From a virus (taxonomy: Duplodnaviria; Caudoviricetes), in the IMG/VR virus record IMGVR_UViG_3300043391_000241, positions 1 through 62,920 of that record: a stretch of 62,920 nucleotides of DNA; one strand, written 5' to 3'. Under the pieces are notes generated by a model. The model was not told where the DNA came from and ran no database searches. It worked only from the letters and a program-made list of their open reading frames with translations. Below are positions 1-27,307 of this stretch, in pieces (the first letter of the stretch is position 1; every line of letters begins with the position of its first letter). A program made the translations under genes and the position numbers.

Positions 1-153
1 TTCCGTTGTCATATTTATGACACTCTTTCCGTTGTCATATTTATGACACTCTTTCCGTTGTCATATTTATGACACTCTTTCCGTTGTCATATTTATGACA
101 CTCTTTCCGTTGTCATATTTATGACACTCTTTCCGTTGTCATATTTATGACAC
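1..153. repeat. Tandem array, six copies of 26-bp TTCCGTTGTCATATTTATGACACTCT (last one partial), each containing the 16-bp palindrome
   Basis: Units start at 1, 27, 53, 79, 105 and 131; the array runs to the window edge. Confidence 0.97.
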
Positions 154-162
154 GCCCCGTCC

Positions 163-323
163 GTCAATTATTTTCTCCTATACAATATAAAAAGTCTTAT
201 TTAGAAGTCCTTCACTAATGTGTCCGACACATTAGTGAACAGCATTATGATAAGACTTTTTAACTTACAAAACGCAGCGACATATTAGTCACCGATAAAC
301 GCTAGGATTTCTGCGAACTATGA
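163..323. repeat. Dispersed ~160-bp repeat, copy 1, with a 73-bp nested palindrome (189-261)
   Basis: Near-identical to 60898-61058 and, in part, 21790-21902. Confidence 0.95.
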
Positions 324-366
324 ACCCCGATTCCTCGATCCCGAACCCTCGATCCTGTATCACACA

Positions 367-482
367 CCCGTATCCAGTAACACCTCGCCCGTATCCAGTA
401 ACACCTCGACCATCTTATCCCTCGCCCGTATCCAGTAACACCTCGACCATCTTATCCCTCGCCCGTATCCAGTAACACCTCG
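367..482. repeat. Iteron-like repeats: 21-bp CCCGTATCCAGTAACACCTCG x4 and 16-bp ACCATCTTATCCCTCG x2 (order A-A-B-A-B-A)
   Basis: A at 367, 388, 425 and 462; B at 409 and 446. Confidence 0.92.
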
Positions 483-520
483 CCCGTCCTCTGAAAATAC
501 TTTGCGATTCCTTAAAATAC

Positions 521-569
521 TTATTGACATTTCATGCATAATATGCTATCATATATGGACAGTTGAGAC
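521..569 (+). promoter_or_regulatory. Strong sigma70-type early promoter, copy 1
   Basis: TTGACA-17-TATCAT with extended -10 TG; downstream ATATGGACAGTTGAGA is shared with the copies at ~901 and ~2606. Confidence 0.88.
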
Positions 570-585
570 AGACTGTATGAAGACT

Positions 586-888
586 ATGAATACTAACTCC
601 ACTACCACCGCCCGTTGCTCCTTGTCGGAGTGTCATAAATATGACACCTCCCACAAGCGGCAGAGAAAAGACAACACTCGATCTGTGTGCGAACACCTCA
701 AAATGTTCCAACCCGAACGAGGAAAGACTCGAAACAACTGGTCGTATAAAGCGAAGCGTCCGCCCGAATCGAATAAGGCAAACGCTTTGTTCAATCGCCA
801 ACTCAAGCAATGGGATCGCGCCTGTCAGAAGGGCGACCTCAAAGCGATCATGCGGCTCGCCACTGCCAACCCTAAATTACTTGCCTAA
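586..888 (+). CDS. Hypothetical basic early protein
   Basis: In frame with ORF 502..888; actATG at 586 lies just downstream of the promoter. Confidence 0.5.
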   Translation: MNTNSTTTARCSLSECHKYDTSHKRQRKDNTRSVCEHLKMFQPERGKTRNNWSYKAKRPPESNKANALFNRQLKQWDRACQKGDLKAIMRLATANPKLLA

Positions 889-900
889 CCCTTAAGATTC

Positions 901-948
901 TTATTGACATTCTGTCCATAATATGCTATCATATATGGACAGTTGAGA
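901..948 (+). promoter_or_regulatory. Early promoter, copy 2
   Basis: TTGACA-17-TATCAT with the same conserved downstream block. Confidence 0.88.
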
Positions 949-980
949 AAGACTCTACTGCAAAACAACCTGTCATAAAT

Positions 981-1217
981 ATGACACAACCAATGAAACA
1001 TATGTATCCAATCCGTAAACTATCCGCCGCTTCCCGTAAGCGGGTCACCCGCAGAATCCTCAACCAGCTCCGCTACTTGCGGTGCTGGTACAGCGACGCA
1101 TTGGCAGAAGCCAATACAGCGGAGTTTGATGGCGATGTAATCGCCATGCTCCAACATGAGCAAGAGGCATCTGCCCTCGCTCTCGAAATCCGCGAGCTGG
1201 AAGGGAGGCTCGCATGA
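981..1217 (+). CDS. Hypothetical early protein
   Basis: ORF follows promoter copy 2; the ATG lies inside the palindrome. Confidence 0.7.
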   Translation: MTQPMKHMYPIRKLSAASRKRVTRRILNQLRYLRCWYSDALAEANTAEFDGDVIAMLQHEQEASALALEIRELEGRLA

Positions 1218-1369
1218 TCCCCGTATCCTCCATCCTGATCCTTGCGCTCGTCACCTTCGTGGCGCAAGCCGTGATGTTTGGCGTACTCCGCGCCGTTGTC
1301 TACACGCTGGCAATCGCAAGCGTGATCACCTTCTGCTGGCTAATGGTAGCCGCAGGACTCGTCCTGTAA
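1214..1369 (+). CDS. Small two-helix membrane protein (51 aa, MIPVSSILILALVTFVAQ...)
   Basis: Translated by hand; ATGA overlap with the upstream gene; almost wholly hydrophobic; ends just before a palindrome. Confidence 0.6.
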   Translation: MIPVSSILILALVTFVAQAVMFGVLRAVVYTLAIASVITFCWLMVAAGLVL

Positions 1370-1415
1370 TCTGTCATAAATATGACACAACTGAAACACA
1401 AACACACAAACTACT

Positions 1416-2135
1416 ATGTCATTACTCACATACGATAACGCGAAGACAACTAAAGGGGAGCCGTTAGGCTACCTCACAGGCATCTTGTATCTTGCACCCC
1501 ACAAGATCGCAGGACGCAATGTCTGTCCCAACGCAACGAAAGGTTGCGCCGCTGCTTGCCTCTACTCCGCAGGACATGGCAAGTTCTCCAACGTCCAGTC
1601 CGCAAGGATCGCGAAGACGAAGAAGTTCTTTGCCGACCCCAAAGCCTTCGTCGATGAACTACGCAAGGATATCTTTGCGCTCATTCGCAAAGCCGCGAGG
1701 ACGGGACTCATTCCATGCGTCCGCCTCAACGGCACAAGCGACCTGCCTTGGGAGAAACTCAAAGGCACGAACGGCATGACCCTCATAGAGGAGTTCCCGC
1801 ATCTCCAGTTCTACGACTACACAAAGTCCACGCAGAGAATGGTGGACTTCATCAACGGCGACTTGCCCGCCAACTACCATCTCACCTTCAGCCGTAGCGA
1901 GAAGGCTGGCATGGGTACTATCTACGCCGCTCTTCAGAAGAGCGGCGGCAATGTCGCGGCTGTCGTCAACGTGAAGCGCGGCAAGCCATTGCCTGCCTTC
2001 AGCGGCGGCTCACTTCTAGTTGATGGAGACGAACATGACCTCCGCTTCCTCGATCCGAAAGGATGCATCGTCGGCCTCCGCGCCAAAGGTGATGCCATCA
2101 AAGACACAAGCGGCTTCGTGCTCCGTGTAGCCTGA
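1416..2135 (+). CDS. Gp88-like phage protein (Cys-rich, radical-SAM-like)
   Basis: CPNATKGCAAACLYSAG, VRLNGTSD, FYDYTK, NYHLTFS and DGDEHDLRFLD motifs. Confidence 0.8.
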   Translation: MSLLTYDNAKTTKGEPLGYLTGILYLAPHKIAGRNVCPNATKGCAAACLYSAGHGKFSNVQSARIAKTKKFFADPKAFVDELRKDIFALIRKAARTGLIPCVRLNGTSDLPWEKLKGTNGMTLIEEFPHLQFYDYTKSTQRMVDFINGDLPANYHLTFSRSEKAGMGTIYAALQKSGGNVAAVVNVKRGKPLPAFSGGSLLVDGDEHDLRFLDPKGCIVGLRAKGDAIKDTSGFVLRVA

Positions 2136-2156
2136 AACCTAAAACCTGTCATAAAT

Positions 2157-2321
2157 ATGACACAATACGAAATCGATTCCGAAAGAGCGAATCTCCGCGC
2201 TCAGATCCTGATGGCTCGTGAACACGCAACCCGTACCAATGGGGAAATCCGTGAGGCTAACATCAGTCACATGAACGCCGCAATTGTGGCACTCCGCGAA
2301 CTCAATCACAAACTAAAATAG
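2157..2321 (+). CDS. Small hypothetical protein (54 aa, MTQYEIDSERANLRAQ...)
   Basis: Translated by hand; the ATG lies inside the palindrome at 2147. Confidence 0.55.
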   Translation: MTQYEIDSERANLRAQILMAREHATRTNGEIREANISHMNAAIVALRELNHKLK

Positions 2322-2414
2322 AACATATGAAAACTGCGTAGCTTACCGCATAGTTGTAGCGTTCAAATACAAACACATAACACATCATCACTGAATACTA
2401 AACCTGTCATAAAT

Positions 2415-2690
2415 ATGACCACTCAAACCGTATACATTTGTCAGAAGCTCCGACTCCACAACGTGGAATCCAACTTGCCCATCAACGCGAATGCGATCCA
2501 GTATCTTACTTCGCGTCAATCATCATGGGAATCCCCGCCGATTCTCTGCCGCGACATCATCTTGTATAAGCGCAAAGAAAAACCTTTGCTCAACAAGAAA
2601 AAGATGTTGACATTCTATTCTCTATATGCTATCATATATGGACAGTTGAGACAGGCATACCGCTTCATCTCAACTCCGAAGCTGTCATAA
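2415..2690 (+). CDS. Hypothetical protein (3' part overlaps promoter copy 3; doubtful)
   Basis: ORF starts inside the palindrome at 2405. Confidence 0.35.
   Translation: MTTQTVYICQKLRLHNVESNLPINANAIQYLTSRQSSWESPPILCRDIILYKRKEKPLLNKKKMLTFYSLYAIIYGQLRQAYRFISTPKLS
2606..2652 (+). promoter_or_regulatory. Early promoter, copy 3
   Basis: TTGACA-17-TATCAT followed by ATATGGACAGTTGAGACA. Confidence 0.85.
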
Positions 2691-2729
2691 ATATGACACA
2701 ACTGAAACAACAAACACCAACTAAATAAT

Positions 2730-3578
2730 ATGAATACTGAAGTAGGAATCCTAGTCCGCGTATCATTCGGCAAGTTCGCCCCGAAAGTGGCAAACAAGAA
2801 AGCATCACATGAATACGCTCATGCTCACGGCGCAGATGCCGCGATGCATAAGGCTCATATGCTCCTCGTATCTGAGGAGTACACTGCGCCCATCCAGAAG
2901 TTTGAGTCGGCAGTACGGCAGAACTTCGTCAACGTATATACCACTCCGTGGGAAAGAGGAGGATCGTCCCTGCTCCCTGCGAAGTGCATCGATACTTTCA
3001 TGACGCAAGTCGGTTTGCTCCGACAGGAGCATGATCGCCTCGTCGCAGAGTGGCTGGCTAAGTATGATGCCATCATCGAGGGCGCGAAGCAGAAGCTCAA
3101 CGGAGACTTCGATGCCCGCCGCTATCCCTCGCGTGAGGAAGTGTCACGCAAGTTCTACATGGAGGTGACGTACTCACCGCTTCCCGCCTCTGGAGACTAT
3201 CGCATCGATGTCTCTAAGGAACTGCTTGAGGAAGTCAAAGCGGAGACTGATCGCATCGCAGACGCTCGCTTCGCTGATGCCCGCCTTGAGTTGAGGCAAC
3301 GCCTCATCGACAAGCTTCAGCATCTGTCTGACAGATGCAAAGCTGTCAACGAGAACGACAAGGCAAAGTGGTACGAGTCGAACATCAGCAATCTCGTCGA
3401 TCTCTTCGACCTGATTCCGAAGATGCTGTTGGGCGATGACCCTGCACTTGAGCAGGCGATCCGTGATGCCCGTGCCATGTTGACTGGCATCGACTCCGAC
3501 ACGATCAAGTCCAGCGAGAACGTGCGTGATGACGTTCGCAAGAAAGCCGCGAGCATCATCAGCTCATTGCAATTCTAA
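2730..3578 (+). CDS. DUF3150-like helical protein
   Basis: TTPW-xx-GG-xLLP and YPSxEEV motifs; lies upstream of an AAA/VWA pair. Confidence 0.6.
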   Translation: MNTEVGILVRVSFGKFAPKVANKKASHEYAHAHGADAAMHKAHMLLVSEEYTAPIQKFESAVRQNFVNVYTTPWERGGSSLLPAKCIDTFMTQVGLLRQEHDRLVAEWLAKYDAIIEGAKQKLNGDFDARRYPSREEVSRKFYMEVTYSPLPASGDYRIDVSKELLEEVKAETDRIADARFADARLELRQRLIDKLQHLSDRCKAVNENDKAKWYESNISNLVDLFDLIPKMLLGDDPALEQAIRDARAMLTGIDSDTIKSSENVRDDVRKKAASIISSLQF

Positions 3579-3584
3579 TCTCAC

Positions 3585-3654
3585 AAACTAACGGGGGAAG
3601 CGCATCCGATCACGCTTACAATCTGTCATAAATATGACACTCTGAAATACAACT
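3585..3654 (+). repeat. ~70-bp intergenic repeat, copy 1 (small hairpin AAGCG...CGCTT plus palindrome)
   Basis: Matches 6321-6392. Confidence 0.92.
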
Positions 3655-3671
3655 ATATACTACACACTACT

Positions 3672-4739
3672 ATGTCTCATCCAGAAATTACATCCAACGA
3701 TATCGCCGCCGTACTTGAACGCTCCGCTCTCAGCGGCAACAAGAAAGTCCCACTCTTCTTAGGGGTATACGGCATCGGCAAGTCTTATCAGGGCAACCTG
3801 TTTGCACAGAAGACGGGCCGCGAGCTTGTCGATTACCGCCTGTCCTATCGCACCTTCAACGATGTCCGTGGATTCGGCATCCCGAATCGTGAGACGGGAC
3901 GCATGGAGTGGCTGACTGACGAGGACTTCCCGCAAGATCCGAACGGACGCTACGCCCTGCACTGGGAGGAACTGACTAACGCCATGCCCTCCGTCATGAA
4001 GGTCGCCATGCAAGCGATCCTCGACAGGCGCATTGGCAAGTACCACTTCCCTGAGGACACGATCATGTTCGCATCTGGCAACAGACTATCCCACAAGACT
4101 GGCGTTGAGCGTATGCTCGCCGCTCTCGCTGACCGCCTTGCCATCTACCATGTGCGACCCGATCTGGATTCCTATATGCGATTCCTTGAGACTCATGGCA
4201 AGTCCGCAGAAGTCATGGCGTATCTGTCCAGCAATCCGACTGCCACTTACGACTTCGACATTGCGAAGTGGGATGGCGAGTCCAACTTGCCGACGTTCCG
4301 ATCCTTCGACAGGCTCGACGATCTCGCCGCATCTTACACAGATACGAAGGAGATGGCTGCTGATCCCCTGCTCCGTGCACACGCCGCCTCATGTGTCGGC
4401 GCAAAGCACGGCGAGCAGTTCGCGCAGTACATCAAGCTGACATCTGAGGTAGGAGATGTCGGCAAGATGATCGACGAAGCAGACACTTGTCACATCCCCA
4501 ACGCAGTCGATATCAAGTGGCTCATTGCTTGCCGTTCGATTGTGCTTGCCAACAAGGAGAATCTCGCGCAAGTTCTGTTGCTCGCCCACCGACTGACTGA
4601 TCCAACTCGTAGCGAGCAATCGTTGCAAGCGATGGAGTCCTTCGTTGGCAACACTATCAAACGCAAGAAGCCAGATCTGATGCGCTCCAAAGCGATGATC
4701 GACTGGCACATCAAACATGGCGACACTCTCTCCAGCTGA
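3672..4739 (+). CDS. MoxR-like AAA+ ATPase
   Basis: Walker A GVYGIGKS, Walker B LHWEE, sensor ASGNR, Arg finger ALADR. Confidence 0.85.
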   Translation: MSHPEITSNDIAAVLERSALSGNKKVPLFLGVYGIGKSYQGNLFAQKTGRELVDYRLSYRTFNDVRGFGIPNRETGRMEWLTDEDFPQDPNGRYALHWEELTNAMPSVMKVAMQAILDRRIGKYHFPEDTIMFASGNRLSHKTGVERMLAALADRLAIYHVRPDLDSYMRFLETHGKSAEVMAYLSSNPTATYDFDIAKWDGESNLPTFRSFDRLDDLAASYTDTKEMAADPLLRAHAASCVGAKHGEQFAQYIKLTSEVGDVGKMIDEADTCHIPNAVDIKWLIACRSIVLANKENLAQVLLLAHRLTDPTRSEQSLQAMESFVGNTIKRKKPDLMRSKAMIDWHIKHGDTLSS

Positions 4740-5019
4740 ACTAGTAGACCAGATCCTGAATCATGAACCCCGATTCCCGTTCACTCAACGGCTATCAGGC
4801 AACTATGACTATGCGATCTGGTTCAGTAGATGGTTACGCACTATGGGTTCAAGTCACATGGTGCGTGACCTTACTTACTATTTAGTATCTGATGAAGTAT
4901 ATGAACTATGGAAGTGTCACAACGACACAATGAAACAACTAGCAACTTGTCATAAATATGAAACACAACGTAAAAAAAATGATCGACACAGCGATGGCAG
5001 TCATCACAAACCACTATGA
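4717..5019 (+). CDS. Hypothetical protein
   Basis: ORF fills the gap between the AAA and peptidase genes and overlaps both. Confidence 0.4.
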   Translation: MATLSPAELVDQILNHEPRFPFTQRLSGNYDYAIWFSRWLRTMGSSHMVRDLTYYLVSDEVYELWKCHNDTMKQLATCHKYETQRKKNDRHSDGSHHKPL

Positions 5020-6319
5020 CTTCTTCGCTCCTGCGGCGTGTGCCATGCCGTGGGTCGAAGACTATAGTGTGCCGACTGCCTGCACTAACGGACTCCGTGT
5101 CCGCTACAATCCCGACTTCGTAGCGTCGCTCGCTCCGCCCGCGATTATCGGACTGATCCTGCATGAGGTATGCCATCCGCTATTCGGGCATCTGGATCGT
5201 AGCAAGCACATGACTGACCATCACATGGCGAACATCGCCTTCGACTACGAGATCAACAATCTCATAGAGAAGTATAACAAGGAGGCATCCCGCAAGATCG
5301 TCCTTCCTCCAGACGGCTATGTCGATCTCGACAAGTACAAGAACGAGGCGGGCGAGGTTATCTATCGCAAGCTTCAGGAGGAGAAGGAGAAGGAGAAGGA
5401 GAAGGAGAAGGAAGATGGCGATGGCGATCCACAAGATGGCGATGGCAAGCCACAAGATGGCGATAGCGATGGCGATCCACAAGATGGCGATGGCGATCCA
5501 CAAGATGGCGATCCACAAGATGGCGATGGCGATGGCGATGGCGATGGCGATGGCGATGGCAAGCCACAAGATGGTAAGGGCAATGGCAAGCCACAAGATG
5601 GCAAAGGCAAAGCAGACAAGCCCTCATCCAGCGGGATGTTTGAGAAGTGTCCTGAGCCGAAGCAAGCAGAAGAAGTAGCCACTCGCTGGCGTGAGATCCT
5701 GTCTAGCACCATCCAGACTTCTCGCCTCCGTGGCAATGTGTCTGGCGACTTCTTGCAGAAGTTCTCTGAGTTGCTCGATCCCCCTGTCACGATGCGTGAC
5801 TTGCTTGAGAAGTATGTCTGCGACTTCGCCCTCGCAGATGACAGCACGAAGTCTGACAGACGCTGGCTTGCTAACCACGATATGTGTGTAGCAGGCATCG
5901 AGTCCGAACGACACGGCACGCTTGTATTCGTCAAGGATACGAGCGGATCTATCACAGACACAATCCTCAAGACTGCCTGTTCCGTGATTCAGGATGCCTG
6001 TAACACGCTCAATGCATCCCGTATCATTGTGCTGGATGTCGATGCCGCAGTGTGCGATGTCAATGAGTACCTGCCCAACGAGGAGATACCCGCCACTTGC
6101 AAAGGTCGCGGCGGCACAGACTTCAGGCCAGCCTTCAAGTGGGTCGAGGAGAATGCGCCTGATGCCCGTGTCCTGATCTATCTCACAGACGGATGGGGTA
6201 TGTTCCCATCAGAGACTCCCGACATTCCAACACTCTGGTTGTCGTGGGATCTCGAAGAGTCTGGCTATCCTTTCGGTCAAGTTGTCGCACTCGATGTGCT
6301 TAACAACGCAGCCGCCTAA
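4958..6319 (+). CDS. DUF2201-type metallopeptidase-VWA protein
   Basis: PTACTNG...YNPDF and HEVCH in the N-terminus; DG-rich linker; VWA-like DTSGS, GRGGTDF and YLTDG motifs. Confidence 0.88.
   Translation: MKHNVKKMIDTAMAVITNHYDFFAPAACAMPWVEDYSVPTACTNGLRVRYNPDFVASLAPPAIIGLILHEVCHPLFGHLDRSKHMTDHHMANIAFDYEINNLIEKYNKEASRKIVLPPDGYVDLDKYKNEAGEVIYRKLQEEKEKEKEKEKEDGDGDPQDGDGKPQDGDSDGDPQDGDGDPQDGDPQDGDGDGDGDGDGDGKPQDGKGNGKPQDGKGKADKPSSSGMFEKCPEPKQAEEVATRWREILSSTIQTSRLRGNVSGDFLQKFSELLDPPVTMRDLLEKYVCDFALADDSTKSDRRWLANHDMCVAGIESERHGTLVFVKDTSGSITDTILKTACSVIQDACNTLNASRIIVLDVDAAVCDVNEYLPNEEIPATCKGRGGTDFRPAFKWVEENAPDARVLIYLTDGWGMFPSETPDIPTLWLSWDLEESGYPFGQVVALDVLNNAAA
5378..5612 (+). repeat. Coding low-complexity repeats (GAGAAG)n, (GATGGC)n and CCACAAGATGGC
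   Basis: Encodes an EK/DG/PQDG linker. Confidence 0.9.
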
Positions 6320-6320
6320 A

Positions 6321-6392
6321 CAAACTAACGGGGGAAGCGCATCCGATCACGCTTACAATCTGTCATAAATATGACACTCTGAAATACAACTA
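6321..6392 (+). repeat. ~70-bp intergenic repeat, copy 2
   Basis: Matches 3585-3654. Confidence 0.92.
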
Positions 6393-6410
6393 CACAAATA
6401 ATACAACTAT

Positions 6411-7421
6411 ATGAAAGCAGAAGAAGTAATCGAAGCCGCCCTTAACTTGTCCCCTAAAGATGCGAAGTCATCCGCATTCAAGTGGGTCGCCAGCAAGCAG
6501 CTACTCGTAGCTACAAAAGTAAAAGAAGGTGCGCCGTATGTGATCATGGCACGTTTCGACGGAGTGACGTTTGTCCACTACGATATCGGCAAGTTCTCAG
6601 AACGCTATGCGGCTAAAAGTAAGTGGCGTGATGCAGTCAGTAAGATCAGCGAGACTGATCTCGTTATTGCATCTACTGCCTATAGTGAAGTGTATTCAGG
6701 ATACGCCCCTATCAAACGTAGGATGAGTAGCCACGCTTTGATGGCGACTATCCTTCGTCAGACATTCAACGCTGATGATTTCAATAGTCCTTGGGAATGC
6801 ACATGGGAGCATTTGCTGTGTGCTTATGCCAGTCAGTTCAACAAGTACCGCAACGACTTGTCAACTGGTCTGTCAGCGTTCCACTATAGCCCTGAACTAA
6901 AGAAGATGAATGCACGTCTCGTTAATCTGGACAGCGTTCTACGAGAAGGTACTGTCTACAATCTCAGAGAGAACTATGTACAACTAGAGCATGAGTTCTA
7001 TCAAGTGCTGAACAATCTTCGACGTATGAATAGTTTATCAAATATGCCGTACTCAAGGGAAGACGGCCACGCGTATGCTAGAACAAAGCTTCTTGTGCAA
7101 GCTTACCCTAATCTCAACGGCATACACTTAGGAGCGCGAGCAAAAGTACAAGACCTCATGCCGCACTGGCAGATCATGAACGGCGAGAAGATACTCTCGC
7201 ATTGGGACAAGTTGACTAACCTATTCAAACTGATGGGTCTTCCAGCACCTACTCCATTTGGCATTGACTTCACAGACGAGAACATTCCTGCGCTCTCTGC
7301 ATTGTACGATGCTGCAAAACATAACATGACCAACTATAGTAGTTGGTATCGTGAGACTAAGCTCGCGCCAACTGAGACTAAGCCTACTGCTAACACTGAA
7401 CCAACATCACTCCTCGCTTAA
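6411..7421 (+). CDS. Hypothetical protein
   Basis: 336-aa ORF after repeat copy 2. Confidence 0.8.
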   Translation: MKAEEVIEAALNLSPKDAKSSAFKWVASKQLLVATKVKEGAPYVIMARFDGVTFVHYDIGKFSERYAAKSKWRDAVSKISETDLVIASTAYSEVYSGYAPIKRRMSSHALMATILRQTFNADDFNSPWECTWEHLLCAYASQFNKYRNDLSTGLSAFHYSPELKKMNARLVNLDSVLREGTVYNLRENYVQLEHEFYQVLNNLRRMNSLSNMPYSREDGHAYARTKLLVQAYPNLNGIHLGARAKVQDLMPHWQIMNGEKILSHWDKLTNLFKLMGLPAPTPFGIDFTDENIPALSALYDAAKHNMTNYSSWYRETKLAPTETKPTANTEPTSLLA

Positions 7422-7422
7422 C

Positions 7423-7773
7423 ATGAACACACCAATCAACAACAACATGGACATCGACATCAAGAACCCGCTTCACGCCGCCGCTTACAAGATGGCCGCG
7501 CAGCACTTCCTCTCATCCGATCATGATGATTGGGATGCCGTCCGCTTATTTAATGCAATCACTTGCGATGAAGACAGCGACGACTGGCTGACGTGCGAGA
7601 TGGATCGCCAGCTCGTCTACCCGTGGAAGGGAATCGAAGCCGCTTGCGGTTGCCCCATGTGCGATCCGTGGGATGTCTTGCAGGAGTACATGATCTCGCT
7701 CGCGATGGACTTCGTCGCATTCGCTCAAGAACAAAACAAGTTTCAGCAAATGCTGAAACCCGCTAACATTTGA
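7423..7773 (+). CDS. Hypothetical acidic protein with a CGCPMC motif
   Basis: In frame with ORF 7351..7773; ATG directly follows the upstream stop. Confidence 0.7.
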   Translation: MNTPINNNMDIDIKNPLHAAAYKMAAQHFLSSDHDDWDAVRLFNAITCDEDSDDWLTCEMDRQLVYPWKGIEAACGCPMCDPWDVLQEYMISLAMDFVAFAQEQNKFQQMLKPANI

Positions 7774-7874
7774 ATAACCATGAACCCTGAAACCTGTACC
7801 CGTATTCTCGTCGCCCATCTCGCCGTCATGGCAGCATGGGCGGCGACCGCCGCATGGCTATTCGCAACTGAACT

Positions 7875-8054
7875 ATGAAACACTTAGTCCTCACGATACA
7901 CTCTGGATGGGTAAAGTACACGATGGGTGTATCCTCAGGGATGCATCCGATTGGCGACGACCTACCTTCACAAACCATTGACTACCTTCTCCGAATCCTT
8001 AATCCTGATTCCCATGAGGTTCACTATTACCCCTTAAACGAAACAACACTATGA
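7875..8054 (+). CDS. Small hypothetical protein (59 aa)
   Basis: Translated by hand; ATGA overlaps at both ends. Confidence 0.5.
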   Translation: MKHLVLTIHSGWVKYTMGVSSGMHPIGDDLPSQTIDYLLRILNPDSHEVHYYPLNETTL

Positions 8055-8329
8055 GATTCCCAAACATTGATCACGACACAGCAATCACGCTGGACATTAA
8101 CGGAGCAGATGTCTCCATCAAAGCACGACCAGAGAACAATCGCGTGAGCGGATGGGCAGTCATTGCCTTCACTCCCGCCTGTTCTCTCCGCTGCACGAAG
8201 ACACACAGAGACAACTTGCTCGACGGCTTCGCTGAAGCAATCGCCGCCGCAGTAGGTTCCTTTGAGGATGAAGATGCAGAGCGTATCAAAGAGGCGATCC
8301 TGTCCATCACGACTAACCCGCCTCGATGA
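8051..8329 (+). CDS. Hypothetical protein
   Basis: ORF with acactATG start context. Confidence 0.7.
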   Translation: MRFPNIDHDTAITLDINGADVSIKARPENNRVSGWAVIAFTPACSLRCTKTHRDNLLDGFAEAIAAAVGSFEDEDAERIKEAILSITTNPPR

Positions 8330-8330
8330 T

Positions 8331-8693
8331 ATGAAGAAACAACAGGTGATGATCCCTGCAAAGATGCCTTCACATGATCCGCTGTATCATAGATACGAGG
8401 CATGGAAGATCCTTACTGCTGTGTGTAAGATCTCTGGCATTAGCATAACGCGCCTTGATTCAAAGGAGAGAAGCAAAGGTCTTACTGCGTGGCGCGACAT
8501 AGCCTACTGCGTTGCTCAGACATTCTTTCTCATGTCTCCAACAGAAGCTGCTAAGTCATTCAATGTTTCTCGTTCCACTATCATCAATAGTGGAACGAGA
8601 AGTGACAACCTAATCGAGTGTCAGTTGCACGCTGAAACGCAAACGTATGTCGATATGTTGTATCGGGTATACGATACGGCTATTGCGGGTTGA
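8331..8693 (+). CDS. DnaA domain IV-like HTH protein
   Basis: ILTAVCKISGISITRLDSKERSKGLTAWRDIAY...EAAKSFNVSRSTII follows the Bac_DnaA_C pattern. Confidence 0.6.
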   Translation: MKKQQVMIPAKMPSHDPLYHRYEAWKILTAVCKISGISITRLDSKERSKGLTAWRDIAYCVAQTFFLMSPTEAAKSFNVSRSTIINSGTRSDNLIECQLHAETQTYVDMLYRVYDTAIAG

Positions 8694-11600
8694 GCTTGAT
8701 GTAACGCGTGTAGCGGTTGAGTTCGTCATTGAACGTCTTCATCCGCTGCACGCCCACATCTCCTAAGCTCAACACCTTTTCGATGAACGCTGGATTTGGT
8801 ACGGGCTTCTCTGATAGTCCGTTGAAGATCAGACTGATGCGGCGATCCCCGTATCCCATATCCTGCTGCTTCATAAGTCCAGCGGCTTCCCGAATCCCGA
8901 ATCCTGATTTAGGAATGTTGAGGAACCCACGAAGTCCCTTGTATACTTCTTCGTCAATACGGACGCGAGTCTCAACCCAATCTCTGGCAAGCCCCCTGAC
9001 GTCGTCGTCAGACAGCGCACGTTTCGTCTTGAGTTGATTGATCCTGCCAGTCAGATCGTTCCGCTCCTTCTGCTTGTTGCGTAGGAACTTCGTCGCGCTC
9101 TCCGTCACGTTGACTTCGCGTGGACGGGTTGGCTTGAACTCATCCAGTAGAATATGGAGTGGTGCATACTTATCATCAACAGCGAGTCCTTGAGCAGAGT
9201 TGAAAGCTTCCCATGCTTTCTGTATCATGCGAGGGTTGAACGAGTTGTCGATAATGTAGCCTAACTTCTTAGCGTATTGCATGATGCCGTCAGACTCATA
9301 GGCAATCGGTTGCTTTGTACTACGATCTTGATTGTTCCATACATCGAGCAATGCTCCAGTAAAGATCTGCGTATCAAGATAGGTACTCGATAGAGCATTA
9401 GTAAAACTCGTCATAGCCTTTGAATAGTTTCCTCTAGAGATCTGTTCAAGACTACGCAAAATCGGATCGGCAACTAACGAGTAAGGGTTGATGAACGTAA
9501 GGTCGCCTGACATCAGCTTCCCGCCAAACCATCTATAGTAGAAGTATGTATTGTCCTTAGCATACGATGGCATACCTTCACGGAGTGCTTCATCCTCGTC
9601 GTCTCCGATCCCCATCCAGCGACGTATTGCTTCAGACGCTGCACCTGAGATGACAAATAAGACAGAGTTCATACCCCAAAAGCGTTTCTGCCCACGACTT
9701 CTGATAACTGGATTATCTGACTTCCGCTCTTTAGACGCGAGCTTGTAAGTGTTGAAGACGATCCGTGGAACTTCAGTCTTGTACCGCAAGAATGGAGCAA
9801 CGAACATCCCGCCACTACGGACAGTCGCCTGAATAATTGCTGGAGCTTCTGAGTAACTCTGCGCTGTAGCGAGTACGTTGTCTGCTGCAAGACGCTTCAT
9901 CTCATAGTCTGTCAGTTTAGCGTAGTACGAATCCGTATTGCCAGCGTCGAGGTCATGCTGCTTTGCTTTCTGGAATGTCTCAAGTTCATGGTGGAAGTAT
10001 GCCATCTTGTAGAACCCATCGACTGCTCCAGATGCTGCCCGAAGTTTATCCGTCAATGGCGCAGTTGCTTCAGATATTTTATCATAGACGACTCCAGCTT
10101 TTTGCTTTACAGTTTGAAGCTTCTCCATAATCGAATTAGCTTCCTCCTTCAAACTCTCTGGTGTCTTGCGTCCTTTGAGAAGATCCTTAATAAGCGACGA
10201 TTGCATCTCATTATTAAGTATGCCCAATGCTACTAGCTCTGCTCTGTACGCATCGATGTCGTTTGGATCTGCAACAACTTGTCCGATAAGTTTCATGGAT
10301 AGTGCCATCGACTTGAAGTTAACAAATCCTTGAGAAGGGGCGAAGAATAGAGAATTGCTTACGATGTTGCGGAGATAGAATCCAATCGAACCCAGCGTCT
10401 TAACGCCTAAGGATAGTCCAGTAAGCTTGTTGAATACGTTAGCAACTTCTTTAGTCGCAAACTGTGCAGCTGTCAGGTTGTCATCGATTACTGGAGGGCT
10501 ATACATCTTACGCATTCCTTCAATGAGTTCAAGCGGCCCGTACATATTGTATGTCGGATCGTATGTGCCGCCTAAGTCATCTGGAATAATCTCTTTAGAA
10601 TCTGGAACGTATATCTTTCCAGTCCGAAGATTAGCGTAACGCTGTTGCGTCATAGGATCTTTCCTAATGAGTTCCTTCAACTGCTCTTCAGTATACAAGA
10701 ATCCTTCTTCAACTGGTAGTCCGTCTTCGTCAATAGCTTGATTGCCCTCTGGATCTAGTACTGGCTTTGAACTGCCTACTGCAATCAAGTTGTTATAGAA
10801 CGACTGACGAGCAACCATTGTAGTAACTGTCGAGTAAGTATTCAGCAAGTTTGATACTGCCTCTGTGTCCTGACTATATTCACCTAGCAACGCACGGAGA
10901 CGAGGATCGAGATTCGTTTTGTTCCTGAGGTTATCGATCAGAGATTTAGTAACGCCCTTCGCTAAGACTCCACGCTTACGGTTATACTCTGGATCATACG
11001 ATTTGATATACTGAACCATCAACTGTGCGGGAATCTCAGGATGATCATCTAGATAATCCTTAGCCTCAATCATAGCTTGCTGTTTCGTTAGTGCCTTCGA
11101 CCCATCGATCTTAGACTGCTTAGTCGAAGCATTAACTCTGATGCTCGCTTCTTTCTTGATGTATCTTTCGCGGAAGTACTCCATCGCTTCGTCACGAATC
11201 TTGACGAATACCTCATCCTTAGATGTCAGGACTTTGTCTACGTACCCTTCTTCAGAGAAGGTGCGGTAGGATCGAGTGAGGTAGATACCCATTCCCGCAT
11301 CGAAGCGCACAGCAAGTGAACCTTTCAGTCCGTATTGCTCTTTCACTTTGCGCGACCAAAAATCTGTAGTCTTACGCATTTCAAGCAGTGCTGCCGCAAG
11401 CTCAGGAGAAGTGAGAGAGATCTTTTCCAGAGCGGCAGACTGCTTACGTAGGATTTCATCACGTAGTCTAGCACGCTCTGCCGTAACCCGCTGCACAACA
11501 AGTCGCTGATGGACACTAGTGAGATACTCTTTAGAGGTAAGCTTCGCGCTGGTTTCAAGATTGAACTCTCCGTTCTTCACGCGCTGCTTTACTGTCGCAA

Positions 11601-14600
11601 CATAGGTGCGGTATTCACTCTGGAACTTCTGCTTAAGCTCTTTATCAATCTGAATAAATTCAGTTGTTCCGACAGCGTCTGCAAGAAGATCGGATGGCGC
11701 ATTAGCTTCGCTGCCATATGCTTCCTTGATCTGCTTAGTAATCTTGCTTGTGAGTGACATCCCCATCGCATCTGTAGCACGCTCGAAAGATTGCTGATTC
11801 TTTTTGAGTCTACTTACGCGCTCGTCGATATCGCCTTTGATGAGCTTACGCCATGTACTGGAAGCGTGTTGGTAGTTCCCGTTCTTGAATAGTGCTATGG
11901 GAAGTTCAAGTGTTTGAGCTAGACCTTTCAAGCGTTCTTCGATTTCCTCATCCGTCGTATCGGGATTGATATCCCTAGCTGTTGCAGCATAGCGGCGGCG
12001 AAGTACTTCGACGTTAGCTTCTGGAGAGCGTGGATCGAATGGACTATGGTTATCGACATTACGACCTCCAGATTGCATGAACTCAAGCTCGACTGCCATG
12101 CGATGAATCATCCCAGCAACTTCTGGATTATCTTTATTCAGGTTGTAGCGGGCGTACATCCGCTTGAAGACCCCTTTGAAGTAGCGGAACATGATACGCA
12201 TGAGTGACGGATCGCTCTCGTAGAATGCGATGTCTTCCTCCGTAGTGTAACCGCGAGTAATCTTCTGCTTCTCCATACGCAGCATCTCCCCGATAAGCTG
12301 GCGTTTGATCTCGCCATCCTCATCGTTCTGAAGAGCCTCACGCAATTGACTACGGCGACTAGGATTAGCTGTGTACTCATCGACGATGTTGTAGAAGTCC
12401 TGATCGATGAACGAGTCTGCCAAACCGTTTAGTTCTTCCGTCGAGATCGCATAGAACTCTGCAACGTGATCAAGCTCTTCTCCGATAAGAGATTCAAGAA
12501 TCGCTTTAGCATTCAACGGATCACTGATAGTGGACTGCTGGTTTAGAAGTGCTTTGCCCATCGTCTCTCTGTTGATAAAGATTGCTGGATAAGTTTCTCC
12601 AGCATCGTTCTTCATCAGAGCCGCGACGATTGCATCCTCAGGACGATCCGCAAAGATTCCGTGTGCGTCTGCTTCAGCTTGCGTGTTGAAGACTTCGACG
12701 CTCACATCAGCAGGAATCAGTCCGCGAACTGCTTGATCGATCAGAATGTTGATTACTTCCTTTTGCTCTGGCGAAGTATCGATATCCTCAGAGATCGATC
12801 CGAAGTTTGCGAAGCGTGTTTGCTGTTGCGATTCTGAAACCTTCTCAACTACAGGAATAATTCTACGACTGACTCCGACACTAATGGCTTCTTGAATACC
12901 TCTATCAATGTAGTCACGACTTGTTCTAGCCATATCGCTGTTGCCAATTTCAGTGAAGTCAGTAAGCGCAGCAAGTGCTGTGTCGAACTCACTCTTTGGT
13001 TTAATGCCAAAGGCACTCAAGATTGCATCATAGATACGAGCGAAGAAGTTTTTGCCATTAGTCTTAGGATCTTGCAGGAACTTCAGGCTATTCTGGAAGT
13101 CTGACGAAGAGAAGTACGTCGCAACGAACTCTTCAAAGTTCCCTGTAGCAAGCTCGAAAGCAACGCTACGCCTGCCAGTCAAACGGGAATCCTCTGCATA
13201 CGCTGCTTTAGTAAGCTCATAAAGTCCTTTAAGTCTTGCCTTTGCCGTGCGCTGCGATGGTGTGAGTGACGCATCAGGTCTATTAAGAAGATCAACAGTG
13301 AATGCGTGAACGTACTCATGTAGCAGAACTGACTCTACGCCATTGCCATAATAACCTGCAAGATTGACTGAGACACGACCTCCGCCCGATTCAAACGCAA
13401 TAAAATTTCCAGCTTCGTTGTTGTTAATATCCGTGATAACAAACTGAATGTTGCGAATAATGTCTGGATTTTTCAACAAGAGTTTAGCAATAGCTTTGTG
13501 GTTCTTATCCTTGCCACTCTTAGCAATAAGATTCAAAGCAGAAATAACGGACTCGACGTTTCCAGATTCAAGACTAAGTCTCTCGACTTCTTGATTGTTC
13601 TTGTTACGGTAGAAGGCACGATACTTATCAGAGATAAACGAAGGCGCAGCGTAGCTACGCTGACCGACACGAGCAGCAACAACAACGGAAGCAGCTTCTC
13701 CTGAGTCCATTCCCGTTGAAATCAGTTCTTTAATGGCGCGGCTTTCTTGCCGCATGAACTTGATTTCAGCTTCGTTAAAGCCCAACCTAAGCATCCGCTC
13801 TTGTAAACCCTTATCCCATTGCTTTTTAAATTGGTGCTGGAATACTCCAGAAGATTCAAAGGCGTCGTAAACAGTTCTAGCTGTAGCATTAGACTCTTTA
13901 AAGTTATCTAAGAACTGTCTACGGAATGTGTGAGAGTCTACTACTGAGAACCTATTCCCAGCTGGGGATGCCCATTGGGCAATAGAGTTAAAGACATCTA
14001 CAGGCATCATAGAGTCAACAAGTTCTGGATTACTTTTAAACGCTGTCTGTTTAGCAAGTCGCTTAATAGCCCGTGCAGCTTCACGATCCCTTCTAAGGAT
14101 CGCGTAAGCGTCTTGAATTATTCCAGCATTAACTTTGGTTAATTCCTCTGCGTTATTAGTAGTATGGAGATACATACTTGTAGCTTCATCGTACCCATAC
14201 ACGGCTTTAAGTGCTGCTTCAAATTCATTTTCTGTAAGGTCTGACTTAACTAGTCTGCTGTAAGCATCTGCTTGCGCGTTATCTCTTGACTCTCTATCGT
14301 ATGTGAGACGATCTTTAATGCGATCTCTGATCCTACTTACAATTGATGGCACATTTGGAAAATTCCCATTACTATCCGCGTGTGCGATATTATCATTGAT
14401 AGTATTTAATAAGAACTGATCAACAACTTTATTTGCCCACTGAGGATCTAGAGTACGAACGGCGTTCTTCTTAGTGGATACTAAAATTTGAGGCTTTATT
14501 TCACCCGATTTAAATCCGAAAGTGTACAGGAAGCTCGCTTTGTTTTCTTCCTCTGACGTAACTTTTAGATCTTGATCTAGTTTAGCGTCAGAAGGAACTG

Positions 14601-17600
14601 AAAGACTATTGAGCAAGATTGATCTAGCTTGTTCAATTCCTTCGGGCTTAATTAAATAAGTAGACCCGTTTCGTACTAGAAGATCTGATGACTGTAAGGA
14701 TTGTACAAGATGACCATATGTTAAAGCTCTAGTGAACTCTGGAATAACTTCCATCATGAAGTTGAGTTTAACCTCTTGAACTTCATCAGCACGGAGTTTA
14801 AGTCGATCTAAATTTGCAAGCTTAAATAGTTTCTTTGAAGCCCCAATGTTCTTCATGTATAGCGTATTATCACTACCAACATTCTGCGTAATTGTAGAAT
14901 ACACATTACCGAAGAAATTGGTAACATTGATAATGGCTTCAGAAAGTGAGAATTCTTTAGCATCTGAAGTCTCTGTAATATCGTTGAGGTTTCTATTTAC
15001 GGTCACTTTACTTTCAACAGAAGACTTAAATCCAGCAAGTAAATCAAAACTGTCTGCAATAGTTTTTGCTACCTTATTTTCTGTTGGCTTACTTTTATCT
15101 TTGTGTACAATAGAAATCTTTTCGAGAGGGTTTGAAGGACTAGGAAACTGTACGTCGTAGATTACTCTCGACTGTTCATCAAATTTAATCGCCTTATTTA
15201 CAGCCCCATTAAAATTTTGTGGTACTTTAATTGGAATTTTTGACTTTAGAATATGCGCGACAGTGAACGGATTATTGTCAAATACACCGACACGCACTCC
15301 GCCGTCTCTAAAGATATTATAACGAAGGCGCACTTCCTGTTCGTAGTTTCCAGTAAACGGATTAAACCAACTGAGCTTAGGCGTAGTCTTTGACTCCATA
15401 AGTTCTGTTGGAATACCGTACAACTCAACTACTTCACCTAAAGAAAGTGGTGGGTACTTAGCAAAAGTACGTACTGCCAGCATATTCGATAGTTCATTAT
15501 AGCTGATAGCATCACTATAGTTAGCGGGCATTCCAAATGCCGCACTCTTCTTAAAGCGCACGACTGCGCCTTCATCAGAAAGGTAATCAAGAACTTTAGG
15601 AATTTGTTCATTGGCAACTTGTACAGCAACGGACGCACCCCTTACACGTTCTTCATCCGCGAGCCTAAGCTTTTCAATACGTGCTCTCTCAGTTTCAGCT
15701 TTAGCTTCCGCCTTAGCTTGAGCTGCTAATGCTTTAGCGTCACTTGGAACTTTAGGAGCTTTGGGTTCCTTAGGAGCTTTGGGTTCCTTAGGAGCTTTGG
15801 GTTCCTTAGGAGCTTTGGGTTCCTTAGAAGCTTTAGGTTCCTTAGGAGCTTTAGGTTCCTTAGGAGCTTTAGCTTCTTCTACTGCAACTGTCCGCAGACG
15901 CTCTGCAACAGCAGAAGCTTGAAACGGATCAACGTCGTTCTGAGAGGATAGCCGCTCACGAATTCGTTTGTCAGCAGCTTCAAGAGTTAAGCCTCGTCTA
16001 ACGAGTGCCTGAACTGCTTCATTATATTCCTGCCGCGTAAACGAAAGCGAGTCATCGGGTTGGCTTTGGATCGAGTACTTAAGATTCTTATCCGCTTCTG
16101 ATTGAGGAAAGATTAAGTTGGGATCTAAGAGTGGGCTTTCGACAATAGCAATTGGAGATGAGATTTGATCAAGTAAGTCTGGAAGAGCTTGTTCAGAAGT
16201 CTCAAGATATGCCCCTTGAACTGCGGCACGAAACTCTTCTGGAGAAACGTCACGAAGTCTTTTGATAATCTCGTCGGCTTTACTATCAGCAAGAGGCTGA
16301 ATCTTGAGTTCGTTGATTGGGATGGAAAGAACATCGGGAGTAGCATCAGCATTGCCAGCCTCTACTTCTGCCATCGTAGTATTATCGTCACCGATTTTAA
16401 CGTATGCAATCGGCCCGTTCTCAGATTCGGCGACGCCAATAACTGTGCCAGAATAGAATCCTTTGCTAGTGCGGCCTGATGCAACTTGTCCAATAAGCGG
16501 ATTTACCTCTTCTTGTTCTGGTGCAACTTCTGCCGTATCAGTACGGAGACTCTGTGCAACAGAAGAAGTAGCGAAAGGCTTCTTGATTGCGCCTGTGAGA
16601 TTAGCATCTTCGATTGGCTTCCTTGATTCGGCAATACGATCAAGCACACTTTTGATATTGCTGCGAAGCTTATCAGCGGTGTCGGGCATCGAGTTGGCTG
16701 TCGGTGCAAGATCACGATTAGTCGCCAGTACGTGTGGATGCTCTGGATTTCCAGAAGATACTTTGACAATGTTGAGCTTACGGATATCTCCAACAGTCTG
16801 GTTTAGATAATCTGCAACAGCTCGCAGATCTTCAGATCCATAGAAATTATTGATGTCTTTCCCTGAAGTTTTATTGAACCATCCATCTGAGCCAATGCCA
16901 AAGATCGGATACCACTTGCCCACAGCAACGTCAGCTTTGCCGCCAGATCCAGTGCTGATGTAGAACGGCACACGGATGCCGTTGATAGACGCAAGCACTA
17001 ACGGTCTTCCAGAATAGTTCAGCACTCTAGCTTCACCAGACTGCTCTTCAAGAGGTCCGCCAGTTACTGTAGCGTACTTAGTAGTGTATGGCGCAGAATC
17101 AAAAGTAACTTTGTTGCCGTTGATGTCTGCCGCTTGTGCCAAGACAGATTCAAGTTGCTCAGGATTACTGAAAGATGCTGGCGTAGTTGGCGCAGCTGGT
17201 GCGGGTAGTGCTGGAGTTGCTGCGTTAGCCTGTGGCTTAATGCTTCCAGTTCCGATTAGTCCGACAGCATTTCTTGCTCCAGCACTGGCAGCGGCTGAAG
17301 TTTCTTCTGGCTTATTAGCCATTGCATTCAGCTGGTCTAGCGTAACAAACTCATCTGTGTTCGCAGCAGCGGCAGCAGGATTAGCCGCAGCTGGCTTTGC
17401 AGCAGCTGGAGCAGCAGCCTTCTGTTGCGGTGCAAAGATGCGTCTCTCAATTGCTTCAGCTGTAAGTGGACTGCCAGCGGCACGGAGATTCTCAGCGATC
17501 TGATTTACGACAGAAGCCTTTGCAGCATCTCGACTCTCAGCATCGATCTCTCCGCCTCTCGCGAATTTGCCTAATGTTGCGCGGAAAGCTCCAGCCGCTC

Positions 17601-19869: not shown

Positions 19870-19906
19870 AGCTGGTGCTGGTTTGGGGTATGTTGTTTAG
19901 GTTAGT

Positions 19907-20962: not shown

Positions 20963-20965
20963 ATA

Positions 20966-21697
20966 TTATAATGGTTTCGGATTAGTATTTCTAAAGGACT
21001 CAAGTTGGGCTTTAAGCAAATCGCGCCTAAGCTTTGCCTCTTCTTCCATACCAGTTTGAAAAGATTGAGCGGCAGCAAGCGAGGCATCATTTTTTGCCTG
21101 AACGCCTGATGCATAGTCCTGACTCTTTAGAGTAGGTTCCTTGAGTCCTGTTTCGCCACCAGTAAGCGCAATTTGTTCAGCGGCTCTTCCGAATCCGCTA
21201 CGCTGTAGCTTACGCGCCATACGCATAGCGCGTCCTGTATCCGATTCCAGCGACTTTGGTCCTTGACGCAAGGCACTTGTAGAACCCATTTGAGATCCCT
21301 GAAGTGCATCATAGCGGTCAAGCAAGCGGGTAGTTGGTCCAGCGGAGATGGATGGGTTTTCATTCTTACCGCCGAAAGCTCCGCTCGCGGCTGAATCTTG
21401 TCTAGCTAGACCTTCTTGCTGATTAAAACTAAGGGGTTTGCGTAATTGCTCTTGAGTCAATCCAAGTTTTGCACCTTCAGCAGATAAACCCGCCCACGTA
21501 TTTGGTGATTTACTTGGATCTGCGGCAAACTCTTTGAATTGTGCTTCAAAGAGTTTTTTACGTTCGGCGTCAGCAACAGTAGCGTCTTGAATTGGACTAG
21601 TTTGCGCCGTAGGAGTGAGGGGAGAATTTGGCGCACCCTTTAGAAGCCGCTGTGCTTTTTCTTCATCGGTTTCAACTTTTCCGTTTAGCTTACCCAT
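20966..21697 (-). CDS. Putative internal virion (ejection) protein
   Basis: Q/A/G-rich, no Cys seen; ATG at 21697 is 6 nt after a TTGACA-17-TAAATT promoter. Confidence 0.6.
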   Translation of the reverse strand: MGKLNGKVETDEEKAQRLLKGAPNSPLTPTAQTSPIQDATVADAERKKLFEAQFKEFAADPSKSPNTWAGLSAEGAKLGLTQEQLRKPLSFNQQEGLARQDSAASGAFGGKNENPSISAGPTTRLLDRYDALQGSQMGSTSALRQGPKSLESDTGRAMRMARKLQRSGFGRAAEQIALTGGETGLKEPTLKSQDYASGVQAKNDASLAAAQSFQTGMEEEAKLRRDLLKAQLESFRNTNPKPL

Positions 21698-21789
21698 CAG
21701 CAAAATTTACGGCAACACGCTCAATTTGTCAACACATTAGCAATACGGGCGTTCGACTGAACACCGCCTATCCTAAATAGGCGGGATTC

Positions 21790-25371: not shown

Positions 25372-25419
25372 ACTTTTTTCTTGTGGTTCTGGCGCGAATG
25401 AAGTAAGAGCTTGTTCCGA

Positions 25420-27207: not shown

Positions 27208-27216
27208 ATAACAAAA

Positions 27217-27291: not shown

Positions 27292-27307
27292 CTTTACCAA
27301 AAACACT

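Follow-up and report, generated by a model that had tools for sequence, protein, structure and literature searches.

In the genome of an uncultured freshwater phage we identified a 16-bp palindrome, TGTCATA-WW-TATGACA (TGTCATAWWTATGACA), that recurs before and between early genes and is repeated in a tandem array at the very start of the stretch analysed. This stretch, hereafter the window, is the whole 62,920-bp IMG/VR record IMGVR_UViG_3300043391_000241, which is listed as linear and given a completeness of 100 by CheckV. The explanation that we favour, and to which we give somewhat less than an even chance, is that the palindrome is an operator-type site on double-stranded DNA for a phage-encoded, two-fold symmetric, sequence-specific protein, which would act there as a roadblock to early transcription.

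Exact matches to the palindrome number 13 in the window, compared with 0.00 expected from 100 shuffles, and rise to 16 when up to two mismatches are allowed (0.06 expected). Seven of the exact copies have an AA centre (631, 971, 1372, 2147, 2683, 3624 and 6361) and six a TT centre (7, 33, 59, 85, 111 and 137). The remaining three carry a single mismatch at an outer position: the copy at 2405 ends in C, that at 61571 ends in G, and that at 4948 has A at position 15. All 16 sites reported in the original prediction, an earlier reading of this DNA by a model, were therefore located, although these three proved not to be exact. On the coding strand the centre is AA in all nine early-region copies, and TT in the six array copies and at 61571. 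Every copy lies in the array (1-153), in the early region (631-6376) or at 61571; there are no copies with three mismatches, and the remainder of the genome contains only five half-sites, each isolated, which bears out the earlier statement that the replication and late regions are free of the palindrome. The sites are given below with the predicted promoters (P1-P3) and conserved hairpins that surround them; L075, L081 and G003 are relatives introduced in the next paragraph.

1-153: array of six identical 16-bp palindromes, TT centre on the plus strand, 26-bp period, cut by the contig end
524-552, plus strand: P1, sigma-70-type promoter, 11 of 12 consensus positions, TG-extended
631-646, plus strand: palindrome in the coding sequence of gene 1, beginning 79 nt past the -10 hexamer of P1; the same place in L081 and L075 holds the palindrome of their own lineage
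904-932, plus strand: P2, sigma-70-type promoter, 11 of 12 positions, TG extension
971-986, plus strand: leader palindrome, beginning 39 nt past the -10 hexamer of P2
1372-1387, plus strand: intergenic palindrome; 28 nt separate its end from the ATG (1416) of a GP88-family gene
2147-2162, plus strand: intergenic palindrome, left border of a gene cassette (2157-2321) that is absent from relatives
2405-2420, plus strand: one-mismatch palindrome, right border of the same cassette
2607-2635, plus strand: P3, sigma-70-type promoter, 11 of 12 positions, TG extension
2683-2698, plus strand: palindrome before the gene for a 282-aa protein, beginning 48 nt past the -10 hexamer of P3; place kept in L075 and L081
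3598-3617, plus strand: conserved hairpin, copy 1, upstream of the 3624 palindrome
3624-3639, plus strand: palindrome before an AAA ATPase gene, 6 nt past the hairpin; place kept in L075 and L081
4948-4963, plus strand: one-mismatch copy in a coding overlap, functional status doubtful
6335-6354, plus strand: conserved hairpin, copy 2, upstream of the 6361 palindrome
6361-6376, plus strand: palindrome before the hypervariable gene for a 336-aa protein, 6 nt past the second hairpin; place kept in L075, L081 and G003
61571-61586, minus strand: one-mismatch copy between divergent open reading frames (ORFs; 61369 leftward, 61666 rightward)

The 4948 copy is considered doubtful because the homologous sequence of L075 is not L075's own palindrome. 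The copy at 61571 stands outside the cross-lineage comparison, the neighbouring protein (61666-62331) having no IMG/VR relatives.

The strongest evidence for a dedicated binder comes from relatives of this phage. A scan of IMG/VR for the exact palindrome returned 69 stretches, just one of which (L029, the same as L074) held more than one copy. L074 is closely related to the window, as is L078, a JGI contig; the more distant L075 and L081 were reached through proteins, and G003 through the conserved hairpin. Each of these more distant lineages has a spelling of its own: TGCATTA-AA-TAATGCA at 13 sites in L075 (lineage G002), TGCAGTA-AA-TACTGCA in L081 (G001; a 60.8-kb record rated complete), with 12 of 12 sites in the first 5.85 kb, and TGCAATA-AA-TATTGCA in G003 (G1, G2 and G3 below refer to G001, G002 and G003). 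All four half-sites nevertheless share one 7+2+7 frame, TG-NNNN-A-WW-T-NNNN-CA, in which arm positions 3-5 and their mirror positions vary. In an alignment of 24 sites (nine distinct rows), changes were two-sided in three of the seven arm pairs and one-sided in none, and the copies are uniform within each genome. Moreover, the lineage-own palindromes occupy homologous places, being found in the array, within the gene 1 coding sequence, after P3 before the 282-aa gene, and 6-8 nt after both hairpins, where they precede the ATPase gene and a gene of 336-347 aa. Within gene 1 the encoded peptide differs between lineages to match the palindrome, and the peptides of database homologues fit the G1 and G2 spellings. 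Such concerted re-spelling, together with uniformity within genomes, indicates a co-evolving, phage-encoded and sequence-specific binder. The earlier proposal of a dyad-symmetric, sequence-specific binder tied to the early region thus gains support in four lineages.

L082, which has a 24%-identical relative of the 282-aa protein, contains no repeated palindrome, and in the sister lineage G004 three copies of the hairpin run straight into leaders with no palindrome after them. The hairpin itself combines an invariant 10-nt loop (CATCYGATCA) with a covarying stem, AAGCG/CGCTT or GAGCG/CGCTC, in the window, L075, L081, G003 and G004; because G004 has its three copies without a palindrome behind them, we regard it as an independent element. 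The 347-aa gene of G003 is preceded by two palindromes of different spelling, TGCAATA.. and TGCATTA.., that share four bases (L141 10044-10071, minus strand), an arrangement that may represent a transitional or dual-specificity state.

Several features point to duplex DNA as the form in which the palindrome is recognized. Stem identity is fixed within genomes and switched between them, the centre dinucleotide varies across lineages (AA, TT, AT, TA and CT), inverted copies exist (one TT copy in the L081 early region; four AA and two TT copies in the L075 array), and the corresponding RNA hairpin is weak. As the palindrome inside gene 1 is kept identical to the other copies with the peptide adapting to it, the site seems to be more than a structural hairpin, which alone would not require it. 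Read-out of the stem base pairs would also fit the major groove of DNA better than an RNA stem. With regard to the origin of the binder, a phage-encoded protein is favoured over a host factor because the spelling shifts between close relatives that have similar sigma-70-type promoters and leaders.

Under the roadblock reading, host RNA polymerase would start early transcription at P1, P2 and P3, which appear strong by their consensus matches, and the bound protein would block the elongating enzyme at sites past promoters or between cistrons, so that early operons would be switched off or metered once the binder accumulates. The cluster of five to six sites in the non-coding control region would offer a high-avidity locus for the same protein, perhaps as a sink that delays shut-off, as a nucleation site or as an origin-linked site. 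Only three of the nine early-region palindromes follow a sigma-70-type promoter, the rest lying between cistrons with no promoter of their own, and where promoters are present the palindrome starts 39-79 nt downstream of the -10 hexamer and does not overlap the promoter hexamers. An elongation block would be the simplest mechanism at the level of DNA.

A number of points weigh against this reading. In the early regions of three lineages the centres of 23 sites, most of them intergenic, comprise 21 AA, one TT and one AT; the 21 copies that share one orientation are not what a symmetric dimer would need. This bias could reflect A-rich leaders, or an RNA or promoter function, although a polar roadblock would explain it as well. 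Covariation of the arms is equally expected of a hairpin. Furthermore, since the sites miss the promoter hexamers, classical promoter occlusion is excluded and a roadblock has to be assumed in its place.

Simpler identities were also considered for the repeats and rejected. The array is not CRISPR-like (its spacers are 10 bp and identical), the palindrome lacks the T-run of an intrinsic terminator, and a Class-II activator site at a fixed -41.5 does not agree with ATGs that in some cases lie only about 20 nt from the dyad centre.

Among known systems, the stoperators of Cluster A mycobacteriophages come closest. These targets of the L5 repressor gp71 are described as many copies of one short site in short intergenic spaces downstream of promoters, strongly biased in orientation with respect to transcription and proposed to stop elongation (PMC9283540; PMC6550527); their orientation is critical (PMC9283540) and their motifs diverge between related phages along with binding specificity (PMC9283540; PMC6550527). 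The palindrome likewise exists as many copies of one site, mostly intergenic and largely in one orientation. The L5 sites, however, are asymmetric 13-mers bound by a monomer, whereas here the arms of a 16-bp dyad are symmetric in all four lineages, and they are spread genome-wide in the service of lysogenic immunity, whereas the present sites are confined to the early region and the array. L5 also encodes a temperate immunity repressor, to which we found no homologue. Neither an integrase, a CI-like repressor nor ParAB was detected among the ORFs scanned with Pfam and PHROGs (some small ORFs lay outside the scan), in line with the original prediction as regards CI; as no integrase or immunity repressor was found, the phage looks lytic. 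By analogy, then, the network seems closest in logic to stoperators and would differ from them by its dyad symmetry, early-region confinement and clustered array. In the temperate Streptomyces phage phiC31, a highly conserved inverted repeat of ∼17 bp is present in many early intergenic regions and is bound by the phage repressor; the palindrome resembles it in its recurrence at many early intergenic places, but we know of no tandem array next to the phiC31 early region. A third parallel is provided by the PeSL cassettes of T4-type phages, described as repeated intergenic modules of promoter plus stem-loop that lie on either side of small early genes, at the points where genes have been gained or lost (PMC2839356; PMC4122927). 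Our palindrome similarly behaves as a repeated intergenic module at such borders. PeSLs, in contrast, are composite promoter-terminators with no lineage-specific exact dyad and are not thought to be the target of a dedicated binder. The present palindrome follows a sigma-70-type promoter in three of nine early-region cases and has no T-run.

Of the competing explanations, the one that survives best, although we consider it improbable, is that the element works as RNA. The transcribed palindrome would then be a leader hairpin read by a phage RNA-binding protein or nuclease, with consequences for translation, processing or stability, and a leftward transcript of the array would constitute a multi-hairpin sponge. 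Consistent with this are the single centre that prevails relative to transcription and the appearance of that same centre in the array copies of the window, L074, L078 and L081 when these are read leftward; leftward transcription of the array is, however, an assumption. The position of most sites also fits, as they end 14-35 nt before start codons, in unstructured, A/C-rich and G-poor leaders that have no Shine-Dalgarno sequence (none precedes any of 51 predicted genes), and the arms covary. Nevertheless, the predicted hairpin has a free energy of only -4.8 kcal/mol and is no better than that of shuffled sequences (z = 0.2), which speaks against the earlier suggestion that RNA folded over the start codon provides translational control. 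The stem is identical within a genome yet differs between lineages, the putative loop varies in some copies and is fixed in others, no G-U intermediates occur among the aligned sites, the distance to the ATG is variable, one conserved site lies within a coding sequence, and there is no Rfam match (the Rfam and tRNA scans were both empty). ORFs do open within the palindrome at 981, 2157, 2415 and 4958, as had been noted, these being mechanical ORF starts; as a general feature, however, overlap with the start codon did not hold up, because the L081 palindrome contains no ATG and the conserved part of the product of the 981 ORF starts at 1002. An MS2-type arrangement, with the start codon inside a hairpin at a conserved place, was likewise not found, given the lack of an ATG in L081 and the variable distance. 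The leaders contain a further motif, CTGAAATAC, which recurs between palindrome and ATG at variable distance in all lineages, and some late genes may have leaderless mRNAs.

The array and its surroundings bear on a second alternative. Tandem Repeats Finder (TRF) reported a period of 26, 5.9 copies and 100% matches for 1-153, and at the right end of the window (62413-62920) about 65 repeats of the 8-mer TGTCACGC. The left ends of L074, L078, L081 and L075 all begin with a tandem repeat that is short and GC-rich. After it come a conserved junction of ∼40 bp and then five to six palindromes with diverged spacers; the junction is present in these four relatives and not in the window. The repeats found at the place of the 8-mer in relatives are 13- to 23-mers, and the junction after them contains a small dyad, GTTCRCTTGAAC. 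By this comparison the array in relatives is situated within a non-coding region, beside short tandem repeats, and the sequences at the left and right ends of the window almost certainly adjoin each other in the phage itself. Because the arrays of relatives are internal and adjoin short repeats like that at the right end of the window, the window ends are probably assembly breaks at repeats. Logan contigs from four runs, aligned to 1-2500, were too short to span the array or to reveal its left flank. As the junction between the two arrays is missing from the window, which starts inside the palindrome array, the word 'terminal' used in the original prediction describes an assembly coordinate and is not supported for the genome, and six copies is a minimum. 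An assembly artefact, the other possibility raised there, is contradicted by the four independent assemblies of relatives, with their five to six copies and diverged spacers. The close relatives show spacings of 26-29 bp; in L081 the spacing is 24 bp apart from a single gap of 89, and L075 has 30-50 bp, so that the proposed helical phasing at 26 bp finds no support.

On this basis it could be argued that the array is primary, as a set of origin iterons, a packaging-recognition site or a partition site, and that the dispersed copies are secondary, being recombination scars or hot spots at cassette borders that contribute little to regulation; we judge this less probable than the RNA explanation. 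Beside the array lie an AT-rich stretch with a long inverted repeat and also a second family of iterons, a layout resembling that of the lambda origin, where the O-protein iterons are tandem dyad sites with a period of ∼24-26 bp beside an AT-rich segment and an inverted repeat. In addition, contigs of five assemblies break in the adjoining short repeats, and indels among the window, L074, L078 and the contig from run X5 start and stop at palindromes, the last of these skipping 2136-2391 and the breakpoints of the window relative to L074 or L078 also falling at palindromes. Against it, the dispersed copies are exact and re-spelled in each lineage at homologous places, including gene 1 with its non-repeated flanks, and because they stay so in every lineage, selection on each dispersed copy would be required. 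The AT-rich/inverted-repeat element is present in three genome copies, two of which have no array. The HTH_23 protein, which has weak matches to small-terminase families, keeps an unchanged helix-turn-helix segment across lineages. The resemblance to lambda is also incomplete, in that the same site is dispersed before early genes, no O-like initiator was found and the spacing is not conserved in relatives. This AT-rich/inverted-repeat element, ∼115 nt long and present at 163-323, 21790-21950 and 60898-61058 with 75-94% identity, consists of an AT-rich stretch and then a long hairpin with A5 and T5 on its flanks. It looks like a bidirectional terminator, and on the minus strand it precedes both late minus-strand gene blocks and the palindrome array. 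The second iteron family consists of four to five 21-bp iterons (CCCGTATCCAGTAACACCTCG) at 362-493, just upstream of P1; L075 and L081 have unrelated iterons there.

Less probable again is a promoter element for a phage-directed or phage-modified host polymerase, of the middle type or of the N4-like hairpin type, from which transcription would start just past the palindrome. Its location directly upstream of genes and its orientation bias would fit, as would a core, T-A-A-A-T-A, that is constant in all lineages beside lineage-specific flanking positions, given that the specificity regions of phage polymerase promoters vary in the same manner. An ORF of 3729 aa (8680-19869, minus strand) also invites comparison with virion RNA polymerases. 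This ORF, however, gave no PHROG, Pfam or PDB match and lacks the polymerase catalytic motifs that we looked for, and none of the other large ORFs matches a polymerase family; with no polymerase found, a virion RNA polymerase promoter was rejected. The early regions contain one inverted copy, the L075 array mixes the two orientations, nothing resembling a -10 element recurs at a constant distance past the palindrome, the interval between palindrome and ATG is not constant, and perfect dyad symmetry would not be needed. N4-like hairpin promoters have a strict orientation and form 5-7-bp hairpins with loops of 3 nt; here inverted copies exist, the fold is a 6-bp stem with a 4-nt loop, and the giant ORF has no T7-like polymerase match. 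The 3729-aa ORF carries an HExxH motif and a PKE/PKA repeat, and shares 48-49% identity with its G1, G2 and G3 homologues.

That a host transcription factor binds the palindrome, with the lineages infecting hosts whose factors differ, is very unlikely: the lack of a CI-like repressor or integrase in the proteins scanned would agree with it, but G1, G2 and G3 differ by one base pair per half-site while agreeing at the 80-95% level in promoters, leaders and most proteins, suggesting similar hosts, and two spellings overlap at one place in G003.

Returning to an operator bound by a phage protein, the following products were compared as possible binders.

577-888, plus strand: gene 1, the first early gene, itself containing a palindrome within the coding sequence; alternative binder
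6411-7421, plus strand: hypervariable 336-aa protein; alternative binder
8331-8693, plus strand: second protein with DnaA domain IV, hypervariable; alternative binder, or binder of the iterons
24590-24895, plus strand: 101-aa protein consisting of DnaA domain IV only, third ORF of the replication-gene block that starts at 23744

We put forward the 24590 protein, two copies of which would bind head to head, as the leading candidate, although the assignment is tentative and more doubtful than the operator itself. It matches Pfam Bac_DnaA_C with an E-value of 1.4e-12 (47.9 bits against a cut-off of 31.5) and aligns across the entire domain IV of PDB 1J1V and 2HCB; the 8331 protein matches the same family more narrowly (E = 7e-8, 32.8 bits against 31.5). 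Canonical DnaA boxes (TTWTNCACA) are not enriched in the genome, with three found against 5.3 expected and none near the array, and for this reason both proteins should bind other repeats. Three families of repeats are available, namely the palindrome itself, the iterons of 21 bp and the short tandem array. Between all lineages the 8331 protein shows 36-44% identity, the iterons are equally hypervariable, and its gene is present in G004; in G003 a third palindrome copy, with one mismatch, lies in the 5' part of the gene of this type. The 24590 protein is 45-48% identical between the window and G1 or G2, and 80% between G1 and G2, a divergence that parallels the palindrome, which differs at three of seven positions in the former comparison and at one of seven in the latter. 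In this protein G1-G3 share one recognition helix, which differs from that of the window, and a loop dipeptide reads PS, VS, NS and AA in the lineages with TGTCATA, TGCATTA, TGCAATA and TGCAGTA, respectively; lineages with an orthologue bearing IS in this loop also exist. G004 has neither the 24590 gene, the 336-aa gene nor the palindrome.

DnaA domain IV offers further likenesses, since the candidates are stand-alone versions of this domain and the half-site is A/T-rich inside and conserved outside, as is the DnaA box. The site here is, however, a dyad and not a 9-mer, and the proteins have no ATPase or oligomerisation domains. Other observations count against the 24590 protein. DnaA domain IV is a monomeric binder of an asymmetric 9-mer; the loop-dipeptide correlation involves four lineages; G004 is a 23-kb fragment rated 38% complete; and its profile singles out no one candidate, because the 336-aa gene is missing there too. 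A fuller version of this idea, which we regard as unlikely, holds that the 24590 protein was recruited as a dimeric polar roadblock repressor on dyads of two inverted DnaA-box-like half-sites ahead of each early cistron, and also on the array beside the origin-like iterons, coupling early shut-off to array occupancy or replication, with its specificity re-tuned by a change of two residues in the basic loop that is matched by one base pair per half-site.

The 336-aa protein gave nothing in the ESM Atlas and its homologue search returned no annotation, and the gene 1 family has eight representatives only, with no known domain. The HTH_23 protein at 23744, named as a possible binder in the original prediction, is unlikely in this role, as its helix-turn-helix segment is nearly identical across lineages that have different palindromes. 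Of the other proteins named there, those at 24590 and 8331 stay among the candidates, and that at 61666 has no relatives for comparison.

To our knowledge, good descriptions of global operator networks exist for temperate phages, as with stoperators and the phiC31 inverted repeats, and hardly at all for lytic uncultured lineages. The feature would represent an operator network specific to its lineage in an uncultured and apparently lytic phage; the earlier interpretation is partly supported by the comparisons above. Comparative sequence alone yielded a complete cis-regulatory grammar, in which sigma-70-type early promoters are combined with a conserved hairpin, a lineage-specific dyad and leaders that lack Shine-Dalgarno sequences. 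Moreover, as natural specificity variants differ by one to three base pairs per half-site, the recognition code would be accessible with synthetic DNA and proteins, with no culturing. If the binder is a protein made of DnaA domain IV only, this would constitute a new use of that fold; and if the fuller version of the idea holds, with specificity re-tuned between sister phages, apparently lytic phages would carry immunity-like specificity groups.

The phage has no close cultured relative. Against 50,697 GenBank phage records, blastn with positions 1-8000 gave no match, nor did tblastn with the large terminase or the primase, and the best identity for the DNA polymerase was 28% (tblastn). The genes of the window are arranged in four blocks.

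577 to 8693, plus strand: ORFs of the early side
8680 to 23707, minus strand: block with the 3729-aa ORF and the large terminase
23744 to 39528, plus strand: replication block
39543 to about 61600, minus strand: late block

On the early side, the GP88-family gene (PF17338; 1416-2135 in the window, 6638-7315 in L075) takes another early-region position in the G lineages, the genes of this region being shuffled as cassettes. All three promoters are followed by the same conserved first transcribed bases, GGACAGTTGRGA, which recur in the relatives, a scan for this post-promoter sequence returning no lineage besides G1 and G2, and the predicted P3 transcript opens with a stable stem-loop (2640-2680, z = -4.05). 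Within the replication block, three neighbouring genes at 28300-30253 match PF09414 (RNA ligase), a PHROG that bears the label ferredoxin, and PF18909 (dATP/dGTP diphosphohydrolase, N-terminal domain).

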